Under the pieces are notes generated by a model. That model saw only the letters and a list, made by a program, of their open reading frames with translations, made no database searches and was not told the origin of the DNA. From the IMG/VR virus record IMGVR_UViG_3300037466_003572: 20,000 nucleotides of DNA. The stretch is one strand, 5' to 3'. The stretch comes from an uncultured virus (IMG/VR IMGVR_UViG_3300037466_003572). Taxonomy: Duplodnaviria > Heunggongvirae > Uroviricota > Caudoviricetes. Shown here in pieces: positions 3,426 to 17,001 of the stretch; position 1 is the first letter of the stretch, and each line of letters begins with the position of its first letter. The translations under genes and the position numbers were made by a program.

Positions 3426-4157
3426 TTATTTTACTAAGTTTTTAAGTTTGTTCGAAAGCTCAATGACTTTCGCGAAATTTTTGTTTTTCTTTGCTTCTGC
3501 TAGTTCTTCTTTTAAAGTATCAACTTCGCTAGAAGATGTTCCACCAGAAGGATCGCCGACGACACGTGGTTTAGGATCCGGTTTTGCGACCAAATAAGAG
3601 CGATTGTCGACAAGTGTTTTCACAATGTCAGCAACGCCTTGTGGCTTGCCGTTTTCATCGAATTTTACCGCGGATAAATCCTCACCGGCAAGTTTGATCG
3701 CATCATCGATGTATGCAATATTTTCTTGCGTTGCGAGTTTGATAAATTCGTTGATTACTTTTTCTCTTTTATTTTCTTCTTGTAATCTAGCAAGAAGTTT
3801 TTCGTGTTCTTCTGCTTTCGCTTTTGCTTCAGCGGCTTCAGCATTCGCACGTTCAATTTCGGACATTTGCGCCTTACGGGCTTCTTCTGCCTTTTGATCA
3901 GCTTCGGATTTGAAGTTTTTAAGTTCATCGTAATCTTCAAATTTCTTAAGAGCACGATTTAAACGATCTTGAATAATAGCATCAAGTTGTTCTTGTGTAA
4001 ACTTCGCTTCTGTTTTTGGTGCCGGAGTTGGTTCGGGATTACCGCTCCCATTTGGCGTAGGTTCCGGATTTGGCGTTGGCTCGGGAGTTCCCGCTCCGCC
4101 GTTTCCACCATCAGCTTCAAATTTAGGCATTGCATTCATCCAATACTTCATAAACAT
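3426..4157 (-). CDS. Capsid scaffold protein
   Basis: 243 aa; Gly/Pro-rich N-terminus with PEPTPN repeats, the KFTQEQLDAIIQDRL motif and a long coiled coil; immediately upstream of the capsid gene; GAGGAGG RBS. Confidence 0.88.
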   Translation of the reverse strand: MFMKYWMNAMPKFEADGGNGGAGTPEPTPNPEPTPNGSGNPEPTPAPKTEAKFTQEQLDAIIQDRLNRALKKFEDYDELKNFKSEADQKAEEARKAQMSEIERANAEAAEAKAKAEEHEKLLARLQEENKREKVINEFIKLATQENIAYIDDAIKLAGEDLSAVKFDENGKPQGVADIVKTLVDNRSYLVAKPDPKPRVVGDPSGGTSSSEVDTLKEELAEAKKNKNFAKVIELSNKLKNLVK

Positions 4158-4174
4158 TAATCTTCATCCTCCTC

Positions 4175-4233
4175 AGTTTTACGTCCCGGTAGACGAGTAA
4201 GGTTTCCATGCGTTTTACGTCCGCAAGTACGAC
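4175..4233 (-). repeat. Tandem leader motif TCGT-N7-GGACGTAAAAC (2 copies) upstream of the scaffold RBS
   Basis: Minus strand reads TCGTACTTGCGGACGTAAAAC and TCGTCTACCGGGACGTAAAAC; the second copy abuts TGAGGAGG. Confidence 0.7.
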
Positions 4234-4237
4234 CAAA

Positions 4238-4262
4238 AATAAGAAAAACCGCAAAAAGCGGT
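4238..4262 (-). terminator. Putative intrinsic terminator between the minor head and scaffold genes
   Basis: Minus strand reads ACCGC-TTTTT-GCGGT followed by TTTTCTTATTTTT. Confidence 0.55.
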
Positions 4263-4323
4263 AAATAAACTTATCGTTCTATTGTGTAACTTTTGTAGGC
4301 TTTTTCAACGACTTTTTTAAAAA

Positions 4324-4494
4324 TTACACATCATAACCAGCGTTTTGTACAAATTTTTCAACCGTTTTACTGTTTCGTGATCCACTGGATAATGCCGTAT
4401 CACCAAGTTCCCCTTGTTTACGTGCTTTCTTTAGTTCAGAATCACTTAAAAATTCTGTGCCACGAATTGGGAGAACGCGGTGCCTGCAATTTGG
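4324..4494 (-). CDS. Minor head (capsid morphogenesis, MuF / SPP1 gp7-like) protein, exon 2
   Basis: Reads PNCRHRVLPIRGTEFLSDSELKKARKQGELGDTALSSGSRNSKTVEKFVQNAGYDV*. Joined to exon 1 (...GQIFH) it restores the family motif FHPNCRH. Confidence 0.9.
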   Translation of the reverse strand, partial: PNCRHRVLPIRGTEFLSDSELKKARKQGELGDTALSSGSRNSKTVEKFVQNAGYDV

Positions 4495-4968
4495 CTAAAA
4501 TCTATCAATTTACTATTTTGATAGCACGGACTATATCACACTCTACTTGAGAGTTTGTGCGCTTCGAATTGGTACCAATCTCCAACCCTACTCTACTAAA
4601 AAAGACAACCATTAGGTTGTCAGTTTGTTCGATAGTCTCTACACTTCTTTATATTTCCAAATAAATCCGCCAGCAGTTTTGCGTTTTGGGAGACCGTTGC
4701 ACACTTTATCAATCGGAATATTTTTTCCAAAGACTCTTTGTGCTTCACGCATCGACGGATATTCTGCTATAAAATTTCCTTCCTTATCGAACTGAAGTAC
4801 AGGTTTACTCATAGACGGGTTATTTTTATTAATGCAGACATTTGGAATAAAAAAGCACGGGATTGTCCATTTTTAAGAGGATTTCCCCGTTAGCAGCATA
4901 AAGCCACACCCTTTGGTAAGGTTCACACAATTATTCGATTAGGTTCGCACCTAAAAGCCACCCATTTG
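4495..4968 (-). ncRNA. Group I self-splicing intron (probably subgroup IA), 474 nt
   Basis: The 5' exon ends in U (CAU) and the intron ends in G. P1: exon CCAU pairs with GUGG including the U-G wobble. P10: UGG pairs with the 3' exon CCA. P2: UUAGGU-GCGA-ACCUAA. P3: UUGUGUG/CGCACAA. P element AACGGGGAAAUCC, Q element CAAUCCCGUGC, R element UGUAGAGACUAU, S element GUGAUAUAGUCC (P7 GACUAU/AUAGUC). Extra stems lie between P7 and P3'. P8: ACUCU/AGAGU. P9: UAUCAA/UUGAUA. Confidence 0.93.
4639..4812 (-). pseudogene. Intron-borne homing endonuclease remnant (NUMOD1/IENR1-type DNA-binding domain only), 57 aa
   Basis: MSKPVLQFDKEGNFIAEYPSMREAQRVFGKNIPIDKVCNGLPKRKTAGGFIWKYKEV* matches the NUMOD1 pattern (KPVxQxDxxGxxIxxxxSxxEA...CxG...TAGGxxWxY). 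It lies in the P6 loop, has no nuclease domain and no clear RBS. Confidence 0.82.
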
Positions 4969-5751
4969 ATGGAAAATTTGCCCGCTATTTTTAAGTTCTT
5001 GAACGCTTGGGTACGGAGCATCGATAGAATCATCGAGTTTTACAATTCGACCCTGATGAAAACGACATGCATCTTTTGTGTTTGGTGCAAGTGTTATTTG
5101 ACCGAGTGTATATCCGCGATTAATTCCTTCGTTTATACTTGCATCGTTTTGCGCATTCATTAAAGAAGTGTTAGCGATCATATTAATATACTGATCCATT
5201 TTCCAATTTCTTCCCATCGAATCCGTAATCACATTATCCACTTTATCGCCGTAAAGTGCCTTTAATTGCGTTTTTGTATTTTTTGCGGAATCTAATCCAT
5301 CTTGACGTTTTTCAAGGGTCTGTTTTCGCATATTTTCAGATAATATTTCGCGAACAGATTGACGAGCTCGTTTTTGAATATTATCGCCAACGTTATCAAG
5401 ATTGTTTTGAAGTTCTTCGATGGCAGCATTAATTAGCGCTTTATTAGATATATTAATAGAAATTTTCGCATCCGGAATATCAATATCCAAATTATCTAGC
5501 GCATAAGAAACGCCGTTAGTGACAGAAATTTTAATCATACGGTCTGCCCAGGAGTGATTAAAAGATTTAATATCTTTTGTTTTACTCTCGATTTCTTTTA
5601 ATATTTTATCGGTATCTTTTTTTGAAATACTGCCAGATTGCTGTTTTTGTTTAAGGAGAAGAAGCAGCAAAATAACTGCTTCAACGTAATGGTTATTCTC
5701 ATCAGCAAGCGCAGTAATTTCGTCATCATAATTCATCGTATCTTGATTCAC
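4969..5751 (-). CDS. Minor head (capsid morphogenesis, MuF / SPP1 gp7-like) protein, exon 1; spliced product 317 aa
   Basis: Lies between portal and scaffold; carries the DSMGRNWKMDQY and DACRFHQGRIV motifs of phage minor capsid proteins; ends at IFH just before the intron. Confidence 0.9.
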
Positions 5752-5754
5752 TTA

Positions 5755-7308
5755 TTACGCCCCCTGGTTATTGAATATAGTAGAATCAACCGTCCCAGTT
5801 TGTGAGATCTCATCTTCACGGATTTTCTTCGCCATATCTTCAGCGGTAACATCATCAAGTCCATCAAGTGTCTTAAGTGCGGATACCTTATCGATAAGTC
5901 CGTTTTGATAACGAAGAACCGTATTTTCAACAACTTCTTTATCATTACGAGGAATACCGGTAGATAACTGAATTCTTGGGCGAACAGGTGTATAGGCAAT
6001 AAAACCTTTAACATAGCCATTATCCGTTTTGTTTACTTCGTTTTCTAAAACTTGTGCATAATAGAACGCATCTCCTAAAACTTCAACGAGGCTAGAGTTA
6101 AGACGGTCAAGTAGCGCCGATACCGGAGCATAGCGAAGTTTAGTAGTTGAAGAGTCGGTATGAGACGTACCACCACCGGAAACATTCGCATTTGTAATGC
6201 TGGAACCGAATAACCAACTAGGAAGCTGCGCCATTAAAAAGACGTTATTTAAAAGCATGTCAAGCTCCTGGAAGTTATACTGCAGGTGTGGTTCCCATGT
6301 GACATATTTTAAGTCCGGATCTTCGTTTGAACGTTCCATATAAGCACCACTTAAATTAAGAAGTGCAGAATTGCCTTCAATATGCGGACCCACCAAAATT
6401 GGATCTGAGTGTTTGTGGAGTATCCAATCGATAGCTGTTAAACGGTCTGCGATCGCAACCAAATATTCAGCAATCTTTTCAATAGCACCGGTTCCTCTCC
6501 AATCAAGATCGGTTTGCTTATATGGGAAGTGGAATACAAGCGGTTTTTCAACGCCAGTATAAACTAGATTTTCCTCGCGTCCTGTACCTACTTCGTCGCC
6601 AATTGTATAAACCGGAACAGAAACGTCATAATATAGATCGTTTACATAATCGAGCTTAAGTTCATAACGTTTGTACTGAACATAAAACGGAATATGACGC
6701 TCAACAACAAGATACGGAATTTCATCTTTTCCGATTTGTACCCACTCGATATTTGCAATATTAACCGCTTTGAAATCTTTTTTAGAACCTTTAGCAAGTT
6801 CCGGGAATACCATTTCAGGACTAAGTGACTGCATCACAATCTCCGGTTTCACCGTATCAGGAATCATCGGTTCAATTCCGAGTGAACGTTGCATCTTAAA
6901 TAGTTCCGTAAAATCCTGGCGATAGTTAAAGTAAACTTTTAAAAAGCTATCACCGTGAATCGCACCAGTTACCGTCATTCTGAAAATTAAATTACGAATA
7001 TTATTCGCTTTTTCAATGCGGTCAACCGCTTTTTGCTCCTCTGTATTCACGTCTTTACCGGAATCGATAATCGGTGGTTCGGAAAGTAGCAATTCAGACG
7101 GTTTCGTGCAGATAACATCCGCTAAATTACAACCTAAATATAGTTTACTAATTTGATCGCGTTGCGGACGATCCTTTAAGAAATCCTGCAGACGATTATA
7201 TATATCATCTTGTTTTGCTTCGTAAAATGCCTCCATCGCTTTATAAAGCGCAAGTCTTTCTACTTCTTCTACTGGCGGAAACTGCGCGCCGGTTTCAAAT
7301 AAAGCCAT
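5755..7308 (-). CDS. Portal protein (SPP1 gp6-like)
   Basis: 517 aa; N-terminus MALFETGAQFPP, NLADVICTKPSELLLSEPP, GDSFLKV and KHSDP motifs; lies between the terminase and minor head genes; GGAGG RBS. Confidence 0.9.
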   Translation of the reverse strand: MALFETGAQFPPVEEVERLALYKAMEAFYEAKQDDIYNRLQDFLKDRPQRDQISKLYLGCNLADVICTKPSELLLSEPPIIDSGKDVNTEEQKAVDRIEKANNIRNLIFRMTVTGAIHGDSFLKVYFNYRQDFTELFKMQRSLGIEPMIPDTVKPEIVMQSLSPEMVFPELAKGSKKDFKAVNIANIEWVQIGKDEIPYLVVERHIPFYVQYKRYELKLDYVNDLYYDVSVPVYTIGDEVGTGREENLVYTGVEKPLVFHFPYKQTDLDWRGTGAIEKIAEYLVAIADRLTAIDWILHKHSDPILVGPHIEGNSALLNLSGAYMERSNEDPDLKYVTWEPHLQYNFQELDMLLNNVFLMAQLPSWLFGSSITNANVSGGGTSHTDSSTTKLRYAPVSALLDRLNSSLVEVLGDAFYYAQVLENEVNKTDNGYVKGFIAYTPVRPRIQLSTGIPRNDKEVVENTVLRYQNGLIDKVSALKTLDGLDDVTAEDMAKKIREDEISQTGTVDSTIFNNQGA

Positions 7309-7326: not shown

Positions 7327-7764
7327 TTATTCTTCGTCATCTTCAACTAATTTTTCAAGTTCAGCAATCTCTTGTTCCATTTCTTCATTCGATTTAGTAC
7401 CATTGCCGATATTAACATTAAGATTTTTATCTTCTTTTAATAGACCGCGATATTTAAAATATAATTCAATTCCTTTGAATGATTTATGAGAACGAAGGGC
7501 ATCTTTAAAGATCGCCATTACTTCTGTTTCAAAGTTATTCATAATATCGCGGGTAATCATTGCTTTGTACTCAATAAAATCAGACTCTTGTTGATAACGC
7601 CACAGTTGCATGCGTGAAACACCAACTTCATCTGCAATTTGTTGCTGCGTCCAGCCGAAATATTCCGTATCTTCATCGGCAAGTTGTGACTGAACAAGAA
7701 GCCATGCAGCTTTTTGTTTTTTCGGGCTGAGTGAAGCCTCAAGTTCTTTACGAGATTTAGCCAT
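7327..7764 (-). CDS. phBC6A51-family helix-turn-helix protein, probable terminase small subunit
   Basis: Start moved to ATG 7764 (GGAGGAG RBS). LSPKKQKAAWLLV, an HTH (TQQQIADEVGVSRMQLWRY), FIEY, KGIELYFKYRGLL and a C-terminal coiled segment fit this family. Confidence 0.72.
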   Translation of the reverse strand: MAKSRKELEASLSPKKQKAAWLLVQSQLADEDTEYFGWTQQQIADEVGVSRMQLWRYQQESDFIEYKAMITRDIMNNFETEVMAIFKDALRSHKSFKGIELYFKYRGLLKEDKNLNVNIGNGTKSNEEMEQEIAELEKLVEDDEE

Positions 7765-7789
7765 TTTTACTCCTCCGTAAATTAAATTA

Positions 7790-7825
7790 AAATAAAAAAG
7801 AACCGCTCCTGCGCATCGAACGGTT
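7790..7825 (-). terminator. Putative intrinsic terminator/attenuator between terL and the terS-like gene
   Basis: Minus strand reads AACCGTTC-N9-GAGCGGTT followed by CTTTTTTATTTT. Confidence 0.55.
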
Positions 7826-7869
7826 AATTTCTCAACAAATCCCACCTGCCACCCACCGATTACGGTATT

Positions 7870-9654
7870 TTACATCCAATCGTATTTCACATGAATCTTT
7901 GCTTTTGATTTTTTAAATCCCATCATGGCAGTAGACAAGCTATCCGGACCATCATCATGAGAGTTTGTGCCGTATTCTTCGTATTGTTTGAGCAATAACG
8001 TATGATTACGATTAAAAAGGAGTGTTCCTTCTTCGATATCTTTTAGAGCGGATTCAATACGGATCTCTTTGCGGGAACGCTGGTGAACGTCTTTTACGCG
8101 TGTATATGCCGGATATCCAGCCGCTTGAAGCGCTTTTTTAAGTTGCTGCGTGAAGAACTCCTGTGCCATTTGGCTTTCAGCAAGTATTGTATCCGGTTGC
8201 CAATGAAGCGCAAGATTCACAATATCGCTCATAAATATATCAGGACTCACACGTTTTAAATAACTATCAGCAACGTAAACAAGCCCGCTAGTTTTATGCT
8301 TGGCGAGCACCGTTACTGCACTGTAATCTCCTTTTGTGAGCGATTTCCCCATCGCGAAGTCAGTTCCAAAAACAATTTGGTATTTACCATTCAGAAAATC
8401 AAAATCTTGTGGATTATAATAATGAAAATTTTCTTCTGGTCTAAAAATTGCCGTTTCACTGTCAATAGCAGTATTTTGAAACTCGGTTGCAAATGCCCGG
8501 GAACCGATTGATGCTTTTTCCATGAAAAGTTTATGCAGTGGAAATCGACTTGCCCACAAAACTTTTGCGCCGGCATTCATTTCTTCTTTATGCGCTCTAT
8601 AAAAATCCATAGCTGCACGTTCGTTTGGAGATGGCATCGCAACAGTTGCGGTTTCATACGCTTCGATCTCATCTTCGGTTGGCTCATACTTTTTAAATAT
8701 TTCCGTAAACTCGTCCCATAAATCCATTCGCTCTGGAAACTCGATGATCGCCGGGAACTTATTTCGGATAAAGTCTGTACGCTCTGTTAAAACGTAATTA
8801 AGCAGTGAATCCGGGTGAGTCATCGTACCCATGAAAACGGTAGCAGCCGATGTGACATCTCTCGCCGGATACATTTCAGCGTTAAACCAATTTTTGTTCT
8901 TTTTACGTAATTCCGCTGTATTATTTGCCTCGATAGATTCCAAGTCATCTAAAAGTAGCAAATCCGGACGCTGCGAACCATTTCTGATACCACGAATCTG
9001 TTTTCCGAGAGATGAACAAGCCAGCATTGCTTCGGTAAATGTCACAAACTGGTCAACTGCATCCTTTTTATTTTTATTTTGATCAGGAGATAAAATCTCA
9101 CCAAAATCATCACGAAGTTTCAAATTATATTTTAATTGGTTCGCAATCCACTTTAAGAATTTAATCGAACCGGGCAACGTTTCAGATATGATCAATATCA
9201 TTTTACGTTTTCTAAAAACGAGCTCACGTGTTGGAAACGCGTTGCTGAGATAAGCAGATTTCGCATGACCACGACTGGCGCTCCAGCATACGTTTGCCGT
9301 TTTATTATAGTTTGATATACTGTCCAAGATATTACATATCTTCTGGTGAAACTCCGGTGCATCCGAAATATCAACGTCAGATGTCGGAACCAGGTTATCA
9401 GGATTTCCAGGATTCCGCGCTTCTGAAAAATACTCGTAGAAAAAATACAGCATATCGACTTCTGCACGATGTACACGATTTAATTTCTCTAATTCCGCTT
9501 TATCACGTTCCATCATTTCATAATGATAAGGAGTCGCTTTTCCGGACTTTATTACAACAAGCAATGTTTTTAATTTCTTCTTAACGATTTTAATACGTTC
9601 TTCTCGTTCTGTTCGATCCAGGAATTTCCCATCGATAAAAGCCAAAATCATCAT
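7870..9654 (-). CDS. terL: Terminase large subunit
   Basis: 594 aa (TTG at 9645 is a likely alternative start). Walker A-like ASRGHAKS, IRGIR, Walker B LLLLDDLE, coupling motif MGT, and nuclease residues GTDFA, GDYSA and HDDGPDS. Confidence 0.95.
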   Translation of the reverse strand: MMILAFIDGKFLDRTEREERIKIVKKKLKTLLVVIKSGKATPYHYEMMERDKAELEKLNRVHRAEVDMLYFFYEYFSEARNPGNPDNLVPTSDVDISDAPEFHQKICNILDSISNYNKTANVCWSASRGHAKSAYLSNAFPTRELVFRKRKMILIISETLPGSIKFLKWIANQLKYNLKLRDDFGEILSPDQNKNKKDAVDQFVTFTEAMLACSSLGKQIRGIRNGSQRPDLLLLDDLESIEANNTAELRKKNKNWFNAEMYPARDVTSAATVFMGTMTHPDSLLNYVLTERTDFIRNKFPAIIEFPERMDLWDEFTEIFKKYEPTEDEIEAYETATVAMPSPNERAAMDFYRAHKEEMNAGAKVLWASRFPLHKLFMEKASIGSRAFATEFQNTAIDSETAIFRPEENFHYYNPQDFDFLNGKYQIVFGTDFAMGKSLTKGDYSAVTVLAKHKTSGLVYVADSYLKRVSPDIFMSDIVNLALHWQPDTILAESQMAQEFFTQQLKKALQAAGYPAYTRVKDVHQRSRKEIRIESALKDIEEGTLLFNRNHTLLLKQYEEYGTNSHDDGPDSLSTAMMGFKKSKAKIHVKYDWM

Positions 9655-9725: not shown

Positions 9726-9779
9726 TAATATATAAGAAGATGTATAACTCATAAAAATATAAAATTGGAGGTGATATGT

Positions 9780-10508
9780 ATGAGTTTAACTATGAATGAA
9801 ATTAAAGAATTAATCGCTATGGGATTTACACCGGAGCAAATTGCCGCAATGAACGGTGAAAATAAAACTAAAAAAGAACGTAAAGTAAAAAACTTACGTC
9901 CAGAAGATAAACAACGTGAAGGTCAACAGGAAACAAGAGCACTACTTAAAGAAGAAGTAGATTTATTCTTTTCAAAATTAAAAACAGATCAACAACGTTT
10001 ACTATTTAAAGTAATTATCAATATGGCACTAAGAGTAAGCGATGCAATCGATCTTAAAGTAGATCAAATTAGAGGTAAAAACATCGCAAAAGTATACATA
10101 AAAAAGCAAAAGTTTACTAAAAAAATAAAAATAAACGATGCATTAAAAGAAGCTATCGAACTTTATATTCCAAAAGATGCAAAGGACGATGATTACTTAT
10201 TTCCATCTCCCGAGAAAAAAGTTAAAAAGTTTTCAACAGGTAAATACAAGAAAAAAGGTCACATCACCAGAATGACAGCATACAACTGGATGACAAAAGC
10301 AGCAAAAGCAGCTGGACTTACATTCGATGAAGAATCGATTGCTTGCCATGGTATTCGTAAATACTTCGGTACAGTTGCCAACGAAATGGGAATGACAATT
10401 GCAGAAATCCAAGCAGCATACGCTCATAAAAGCGCTAGCACAACGATTAGATATCTTGGAATCGATGACAAGAAAGTTAACGCAATGTACGACAGCATCC
10501 AAGGATAA
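9780..10508 (+). CDS. Short tyrosine recombinase (phage integrase catalytic domain)
   Basis: ATG 9780 follows GGAGGTGA. The catalytic set is complete: R (LRVSD), K (IKKQK), HxxR (HGIRK), H (YAHKS), Y (TIRYLG). No arm-binding or full core-binding domain is visible. Confidence 0.92.
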   Translation: MSLTMNEIKELIAMGFTPEQIAAMNGENKTKKERKVKNLRPEDKQREGQQETRALLKEEVDLFFSKLKTDQQRLLFKVIINMALRVSDAIDLKVDQIRGKNIAKVYIKKQKFTKKIKINDALKEAIELYIPKDAKDDDYLFPSPEKKVKKFSTGKYKKKGHITRMTAYNWMTKAAKAAGLTFDEESIACHGIRKYFGTVANEMGMTIAEIQAAYAHKSASTTIRYLGIDDKKVNAMYDSIQG

Positions 10509-16466: not shown

Positions 16467-16943
16467 TTATGTATTTTTTATGTTATAATTAATATAAGGA
16501 AAAAAAGAAATAAAAACGGTGTTTTTGTTTGATTCCGAAACGGGAAAAGATAATCTTTTTATCGATTCCACGGCGTGAAAAGTTAAATAAACTTTTTGCG
16601 CCTTTTTTGTTTAAAAAATACGGTATTTTTACAAAAACGCCTCATTTTTCAATCTTTAATATTTTTTTGATAAATATATCAAATGATAAAAATAAAATCG
16701 ATTTAAACGGTATTTATTTAATATTATTATTTTAATATTATTAATTTAATAATTTAAAAAATCGATTGTGGATTTTTGAAAAAATTTGATATTAGGTTTT
16801 AATAATATTAAATTAAAAGTATCAAACTCCGGGGAAAATCTCCCTGGAGAATTTTTTTTATAAAAAATGTGCATAAATGCGATTTTGAATGGTCTATAAT
16901 TTTGCCTCGCGCGCGTGCGTGTGTGTAGAGAAGAAAGTGGATC

Positions 16944-16977
16944 TTTTTTAACTGTTTCTGTAAATATGTGTTAATAT
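16944..16977 (+). promoter_or_regulatory. Cassette promoter TTAACT-N18-TAATAT
   Basis: TTAACT 16948-16953; TGn then TAATAT 16972-16977. Confidence 0.75.
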
Positions 16978-17001
16978 GTGTATATACATGGAGGTGATAG
17001 T

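Follow-up and report, generated by a model that had tools for sequence, protein, structure and literature searches.

A group I intron with an endonuclease remnant in the MuF2-type minor head gene of an uncultured tailed phage

The DNA analysed here (the window, 20,000 nt in full) is a portion of a tailed-phage genome. Its minus strand carries the genes of the large terminase, a small terminase-like protein, the portal, a MuF2 minor head protein, the scaffold and an SU10-type major capsid protein. Directly 3' of the portal gene lies an open reading frame (ORF), 5751-4951 (-), that matches PF06152 (Phage_min_cap2) and ends five codons past a conserved His. The first exon of this gene, as delimited below, scores 30.2 bits against the Pfam family, for which the cutoff is 26.3, and matches the phrog_4611 minor head protein at 1.5e-19. 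A first reading, made from the letters only, had called it a MuF-like minor head gene. The assignment to the MuF superfamily stands, with the qualification that the gene, judged by its homology, is a short MuF2 gene (PF06152) devoid of a toxin extension and not one of the MuF1 type to which SPP1 gp7 belongs. It shares both the position after the portal gene and the PF06152 match with the MuF2 branch of the superfamily (Jamet 2017, PMC5576092).

By analogy, the MuF2 product would be a component of the virion, bound to the portal. A PF06152 protein of phage TP-84, gp08, is listed among the structural proteins of that phage (PMC5889276), and the predicted structure of the homolog P0005 (pLDDT 89.9) has a fold that resembles viral minor capsid proteins. 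In this prediction, the part equivalent to exon 2 contributes one strand and the last helix. No solved structure matched MuF2, either by sequence or by fold. The homologs possess a Cys/His cluster of five positions, invariant in 26 of them; two of the five are encoded by exon 2, and the intron site falls within the cluster. The five residues may form a metal site, and they mark what appears to be a functionally critical part of a widespread, unstudied virion protein. The analogous minor capsid protein of 80alpha, gp44, loses its ability to complement unless truncations stay within 7-8 residues (PMC7290940).

Other features of the window are recorded here as separate observations. As in phage KLEB27-1, a probable small terminase gene (HTH_Tnp_1_2) comes after the gene of the large subunit, and a tyrosine recombinase gene in the opposite orientation lies just upstream (window 7327-9654, 9765-10508). 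Between 12400 and 17000 the G+C content falls sharply, from about 39% to 20-28%, and many ORFs belong to no known family; the coding strand switches near 16500-17000. A terminator-like hairpin is located between the MuF2 and scaffold genes (4262-4248, -).

Removal of 4968-4495 joins two exons in a spliced frame of 317 codons with no internal stops (Table 1). The sequence-only reading had placed an intron at these positions, inside the HPNCRH motif, and its coordinates proved exact: 25 frame-keeping U|...G| junctions exist within about 25-30 nt, and the one at 4969/4494 is the only one that restores the family motif. Exon 1 aligns with homologs up to the conserved His, and 4494-4324 supplies the remainder. 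This second exon is 46% identical to the intron-less Bacillus homolog P0006 (E 1e-12, pairwise), and its single in-frame ATG/GTG/TTG is at the last codon. The suggested comparison of the spliced protein with intron-less homologs gave a clear outcome, the His-Pro-x-Cys-x-His site being unbroken in all 34 other-phage loci compared (26 with His-Pro and 8 with His-Val, some contigs being counted twice) and interrupted in 2 of 36 loci, both of this phage. The motif is also unbroken in five named GenBank phage records. Among the best 150 profile matches it is present in 143 and absent in six, one of which has Gly for His while the rest are apparently fragments or have different ends; in this same set, the protein of the window alone ends just after the His. 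Public collections store the gene of this cluster only as truncated forms of 261 or 266 aa, one of them named 'hypothetical protein', which is the fate that had been foreseen for it in automated annotation. A metagenome scan yielded five loci, all intron-less, and no relative of exon 1 was confirmed in GTDB genomes. Early in-frame stops like the one that closes the unspliced frame are described as general in PMC2504315.

Table 1. Exons, intron and ribozyme elements of the MuF2 locus (window positions)
Feature	Position	Strand	Description
Exon 1 of MuF2	4969..5751	-	783 nt, 261 codons; last codon is the conserved His; ends in U
Group I intron	4495..4968	-	474 nt, between codons, ends in G; resembles IA3 / Bacillus-recA type
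Exon 2 of MuF2	4324..4494	-	171 nt, 56 codons plus stop; Pro-Asn-Cys-Arg-His and conserved C-terminal helix
In-frame stop, intron nt 16-18	4951..4953	-	closes the unspliced 266-aa ORF ahead of the catalytic core
P1	exon 4972-4969 with internal guide 4961-4958	-	4 bp plus 1-bp extension; U(-1) on G 4961 (intron nt 8)
P10	4964-4962 with exon 2 4494-4492	-	3 bp
P2 hairpin	4939..4954	-	GNRA loop (GCGA)
5' core	4854..4930	-	whole block from P3 5' strand through P6 5' strand
P3 5' strand	4930-4924	-	
P3.1 and P3.2, two hairpins	4922-4893	-	
P4	4890-4885 with 4862-4857	-	P5 also present
P6 5' strand	4856-4854	-	
NUMOD1 remnant of homing endonuclease	4639..4812	-	57 codons, P6 loop; PF07453, Pfam 6e-6
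3' core	4528..4645	-	whole block from P6 3' strand to P7 3' strand
P6 3' strand	4645-4643	-	
P7	4639-4633 with 4533-4528	-	bulged A, G-C guanosine site
P7.1	4632-4592	-	
P7.2	4588-4566	-	
P3 3' strand	4561-4555	-	
P8	4554-4540	-	
P9, single hairpin	4524-4502	-	short 3' tail to terminal G at 4495 (element 4495..4524)

The helices in Table 1 are named by the usual group I conventions. All the elements listed in the sequence-only reading were recovered, namely the U before the 5' splice site, the terminal G, the guide that forms P1 and P10, and the P/Q/R/S core with P2, P3, P7, P8 and P9. P1 has a folding energy of -4.1 kcal/mol, and a hairpin that competes with it one of -2.1; P1, P2, P3.1, P3.2, P4, P5, P7.2, P8 and P9 each fold as assigned, the single hairpins being only mildly more stable than shuffles (z -0.7 to -2.2, not significant). 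When the intron was dinucleotide-shuffled 2000 times, the strict arrangement of the R and S motifs never arose, and a loose pattern with P7 only did so 172 times. The clade of introns at the same site has a longer P1 and P10 (6-8 and 2-7 bp, compared with 4-5 and 3 bp here); P10 ranges from 2 to 8 bp across 20 relatives, and many related introns of other genes also combine a short guide with a P2 after it. By resemblance, the intron would fit subgroup IA3, or the recA-like type, owing to its long P7.1, its P7.2 and its single P9 with a short 3' end, a feature that PMC2504315 uses as a criterion of the IA3/recA type.

The structure was tested directly because, according to PMC11878797, the Rfam family RF00028 is clearly incomplete and a model based on such data may overlook introns of phages. 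Across 21 introns, 146 of the 147 cells of P3 are paired, and three of the seven P3 pairs show compensatory changes; the two U-A pairs of P3 in the window stand for C-G and G-C/A-U in relatives, and the helix spans more than 350 nt. P4, P6 and P7 form their pairs with almost no variation, and P7, invariant throughout the set, therefore gives no covariation signal. The U-G at the splice site is present in all 20 aligned rows that have letters there. Over the 5' helices, 98% of the cells are paired and both partners vary in 9 of 19 pairs, and over the 3' helices the figures are 92.6% and 4 of 13. The covariation scores of the 5' and 3' halves were each reached by none of 500 shuffles, a contrast inflated by the relatedness of the rows. 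In the 5' alignment (A3, MAFFT), the P1 and P3.1 segments of the window are wrongly placed, so that the result there is that of the family and not of the window. At the seventh P7.2 pair of the window, 20 of 21 rows have no pairing.

A covariance model (R1), built from 20 3' halves other than that of the window, matches the window at 4653-4511 with 59.8 bits, the next match having 15.4. Applied to 17 loci, 14 of which have intron-less homologs, it recovered only the sister allele and a split helicase gene of a Staphylococcus phage. Phage 0305phi8-36, in which the recA intron is annotated, gives the same score of 59.8 bits with that intron, and the annotated RIO-1 intron gives 42.9 bits; a region of phage r1t, presumably a spliced intron, gives 41.4 bits. 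The thymidylate synthase intron of phage Bobb has its 5' core in common with the window and no match to the 3' model. Compared with plasmids, the intron gave no match, and compared with phages, short pieces only. The Rfam check that had been suggested failed to detect the intron: no RF00028 match appeared at gathering scores, and the E-value search returned one irrelevant match (E 9.6), an outcome that the sequence-only reading had counted as refuting.

The insert is thus a group I intron. An opposing explanation, in which the motifs arise by chance, the junction is an assembly artefact, or the frame is recoded by frameshift or readthrough, could appeal to the missing Rfam match; it is refuted because identical junctions occur in independent contigs and the pairings covary, and has next to no probability. 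The model matches, the in-frame stops of the 474-nt insert and the known type of its endonuclease remnant all point in the same direction.

The intron is a degenerate endonuclease carrier rather than a natively ORF-less element. Its NUMOD1 remnant is 58% identical to the C-termini of intact NUMOD4-HNH-NUMOD1 proteins of related introns and also matches a phrog HNH endonuclease; the nuclease domain is gone, and no RBS or promoter is evident. The best promoter-like score in the P6 loop of the window is 7/13, as opposed to 10-13 in 17 of 17 long-loop relatives, the score having no shuffle baseline. In these 17 relatives, and also in r1t and L490, a near-consensus promoter of the sigma-70 type is located just 5' of the endonuclease gene. 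No endonuclease was found among the 26 other ORFs scanned within the window, though a free-standing one may be encoded elsewhere in the phage, and the intact endonuclease with expression signals that characterizes a homing intron is missing from this one. The lost enzyme most likely was, from the sequence of its remnant, a NUMOD4-HNH-NUMOD1 protein; its class is uncertain because two related introns in MuF2 genes carry a GIY-YIG enzyme, not an HNH one. Expression of the remnant as a small protein was considered and rejected, since an RBS is missing and the other allele of the intron has lost about half of the remnant.

This other allele is 350 nt long (contigs L002 and L010/L242) instead of 474 nt, in contigs that are 99.7-99.8% identical elsewhere. 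It lacks 4846-4723 of the window (124 nt), the P6 loop being the sole part of the intron affected. A third contig, L001, ends at window 4847, exactly where the alleles diverge, and from this break point both alleles may be present in one population. Neither an allele of this intron that retains its whole endonuclease nor a version of this phage that lacks the intron was found. Relatives at the same site show every stage of the loss, with P6 loops from 35 to 1201 nt, and the decay of the loop in the window fits the cycle of endonuclease loss described in PMC2504315.

Such decay might instead mark a dead relic, in which splicing has been lost and the phage makes do with the truncated 266-aa protein or has no MuF2. 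SPP1 gp7, the MuF1 counterpart, is not known to be strictly essential, and in the window the endonuclease is destroyed and still eroding, and P1 and P10 are short. The title of a cited paper speaks of SPP1 gp7 as needed for efficient infection. A relic is nevertheless very unlikely, given that the core pairings and exon 2 are all intact. Exon 2 has kept its identity to the Bacillus homolog with no start codon of its own, and a protein ending just past the His has no second example among the best 150 profile matches. Because the decay is confined to the P6 loop, splicing is probably still under selection, and this is the best sequence evidence on the point.

P7.1 contains a terminator-like hairpin with a run of six U (4598..4621, -), located just past the stop codon of the NUMOD1 remnant, and a comparable arrangement is found in relatives and in phage r1t. 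On this basis the intron might be viewed as a domesticated regulator, whose GTP- and translation-dependent splicing would, with the P7.1 hairpin, gate both the full-length MuF2 and the downstream head mRNA; an on-switch of this kind is discussed in PMC11878797. The region 4100-6000 has five hairpin and U-run sites, compared with 1.5 +/- 1.3 in shuffles, and the P7.1 hairpin is kept in 8 of 25 scored introns, with stems of differing sequence. However, the remaining 17 lack a hairpin with a U-run, the U-run of the window can pair with an upstream A-run within P7.1, and the host gene is intron-less in the majority of its relatives. As the hairpin follows the endonuclease stop codon, it is more simply read as the end of the endonuclease transcript, and a regulatory role appears quite unlikely.

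Related introns were found in numbers. A scan for the P/Q motif gave 111 matches; among 114 loci screened, 29 were flagged, of which five belong to this phage, one lies in another gene, and 23 are from other phages. In all 23 (several of them near-duplicates), a PF06152 gene is interrupted at the His|Pro codon used in the window. Patterns for the 3' junction gave mostly chance matches, with 8 of 230 loci passing the filter, L194 being false and only L122 new. With the 5'-junction pattern, 11 of 18 matches in genomes were real introns, and those with a group name come from MAGs of Clostridia and Tissierellia. One clade, of clostridial phages, has intact HNH genes at the same codon. The guides of the same-site introns covary with the exon. 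In a tree of 58 cores, restricted to loci with a complete core, the same-site introns form one clade of 21 rows (support 100/98). The window falls outside this clade and has a P2 that the clade lacks; grouping it with the clade is, however, compatible with the AU test (p 0.41), the branch of the window being long and its position in the tree loose. Its 5' architecture resembles that of P2-type introns of other genes.

Introns also occur at related codons. In L017:1665-2637 (-), a distant PF06152 gene is interrupted at the homologous codon (Gly|Val-Asn-Cys) by an intron that carries a GIY-YIG-NUMOD1 gene and whose guide is wholly rewritten together with the exon (P1 of 6 bp, P10 of 8 bp). In Bacillus phage 250 (L007:2437-3619), a related group I intron splits a PF06152 gene, as in the window; it differs in lying at an upstream Arg|Pro-x-Cys motif and in having an intact GIY-YIG gene, and it is not annotated as a feature. 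Similar upstream-motif introns are found in L492 (vB_BceS_LY4), L033 and L037, from cultured B. cereus phages, and the GenBank record of LY4 reads 'minor capsid protein / group I intron endonuclease / minor capsid protein'. Independent invasions of the MuF2 motif codons are likely.

As for the ribozyme itself, the closest known systems are the recA intron of phage 0305phi8-36 and the recA and nrdE-IVS3 introns of the B. cereus group, which share with the window the order P3-P3.1-P3.2-P4-P5. They also have in common with it the long P7.1 and the P7.2, the single P9 with a short 3' end, the early stop, and a loss of the endonuclease from which ORF remains are left. These introns are classed as IA1/IA3 and IA3 (Tourasse & Kolsto 2008, PMC2504315). 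They differ in the host gene, recA or nrdE instead of MuF2, and in the position of the ORF, which is 5' of the core in 0305phi8-36 and in P6 here. For the recA intron of the B. cereus group, PMC2504315 reports that splicing has been demonstrated, whereas the window intron is known from its sequence alone.

Introns in virion genes had been considered the lesser-described kind in phages. Such introns have indeed been published; they are not rare, and the present site is used by many related ones. The introns of the LittleE capsid and BAKA/Optimus minor tail genes were shown by RT-PCR to be spliced (Pope 2013, PMC3706429), and PMC2504315 lists group I introns in the Tuc2009 capsid gene and in the tape measure, tail tube and terminase genes of the B. 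cereus group, with endonuclease remnants in the last three, as well as different introns at one site (TMP-IVS3a/b). As in the window, a late structural gene is split, with or without an endonuclease, and the split is missed by gene callers. None of these cases is in a MuF gene, and the resemblance to the mycobacteriophage introns is one in the kind of element. A search of the open literature, with most subscription journals outside its reach, found no paper on introns in MuF or minor capsid genes.

The anatomy, pairing, covariation, homology and decay series described above are very probably those of a homing intron that has lost its nuclease and persists by splicing from the late mRNA, so that the full-length minor head protein is made. 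A mobile group I intron would have homed to the His|Pro codon boundary of the MuF2 gene, carrying in its P6 loop a NUMOD1-tailed endonuclease with its own promoter. Decay of this endonuclease would then have left the intron without autonomous homing, the ribozyme being retained since the phage presumably needs the full-length MuF2 protein, exon 2 included. During late transcription, ribosomes would halt at intron nt 16-18 and the core would fold. P1 would define the U-G 5' site, at which a P7-bound guanosine would attack, and P10 would position exon 2, so that ligation would yield the 317-aa protein with a complete Cys/His cluster. We infer that splicing proceeds without help from the host. 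Among the Bastillevirinae, though, PMC11878797 reports eight spliced genes, and four of the eight were spliced only in infected cells.

To the group I introns already known from virion genes, this case adds a decay series and a motif, that of MuF2, which introns have used repeatedly; the general understanding of group I introns is unchanged. A wider reading, possible and still rather doubtful, is that the codons of the MuF2 Cys/His motif are an undescribed homing hot spot in phages of Bacillota, invaded repeatedly by at least three ribozyme builds and two endonuclease classes with rewritten guides. Intact cassettes, with a near-consensus sigma-A promoter in P6 and sometimes a P7.1 terminator or small repressor-like cargo genes, could then be active in a prophage and cleave the head gene of intron-less relatives that enter the cell, and the copy in the window would be disarmed but immune. 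Because annotation turns a split MuF2 gene into one truncated gene or a pair of genes, and Rfam is blind to the intron, surveys of MuF proteins (including calls of C-terminal extensions) and counts of phage introns are off, and the small model R1 detects such introns. The site offers a natural life-cycle series of a homing endonuclease, with intact genes, partial deletions, empty loops and two alleles of one phage, and cultured B. cereus phages of the 250 and LY4 type are a ready experimental system.

Extra small ORFs were noted in the P6 loop of some same-site introns (L018:1661-3048, L076:2417-3852, L390:2505-3858 and L398:1053-1548). The 57-aa ORF of L076 matches the transcriptional repressor family phrog_876, and a similar ORF is present in L390; the others are 68-76 aa long, and L398 keeps its small ORF without an HNH gene. 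Further related introns in public phage records are annotated only as split genes or are unannotated, as in the helicase gene of Staphylococcus phage BM31 (L008), the thymidylate synthase gene of Bobb (L121) and Acinetobacter phage ME3 (L477). Finally, L408-L486 represent a large P2-type group I family, with a 5' architecture like that of the window, in many other phage genes.
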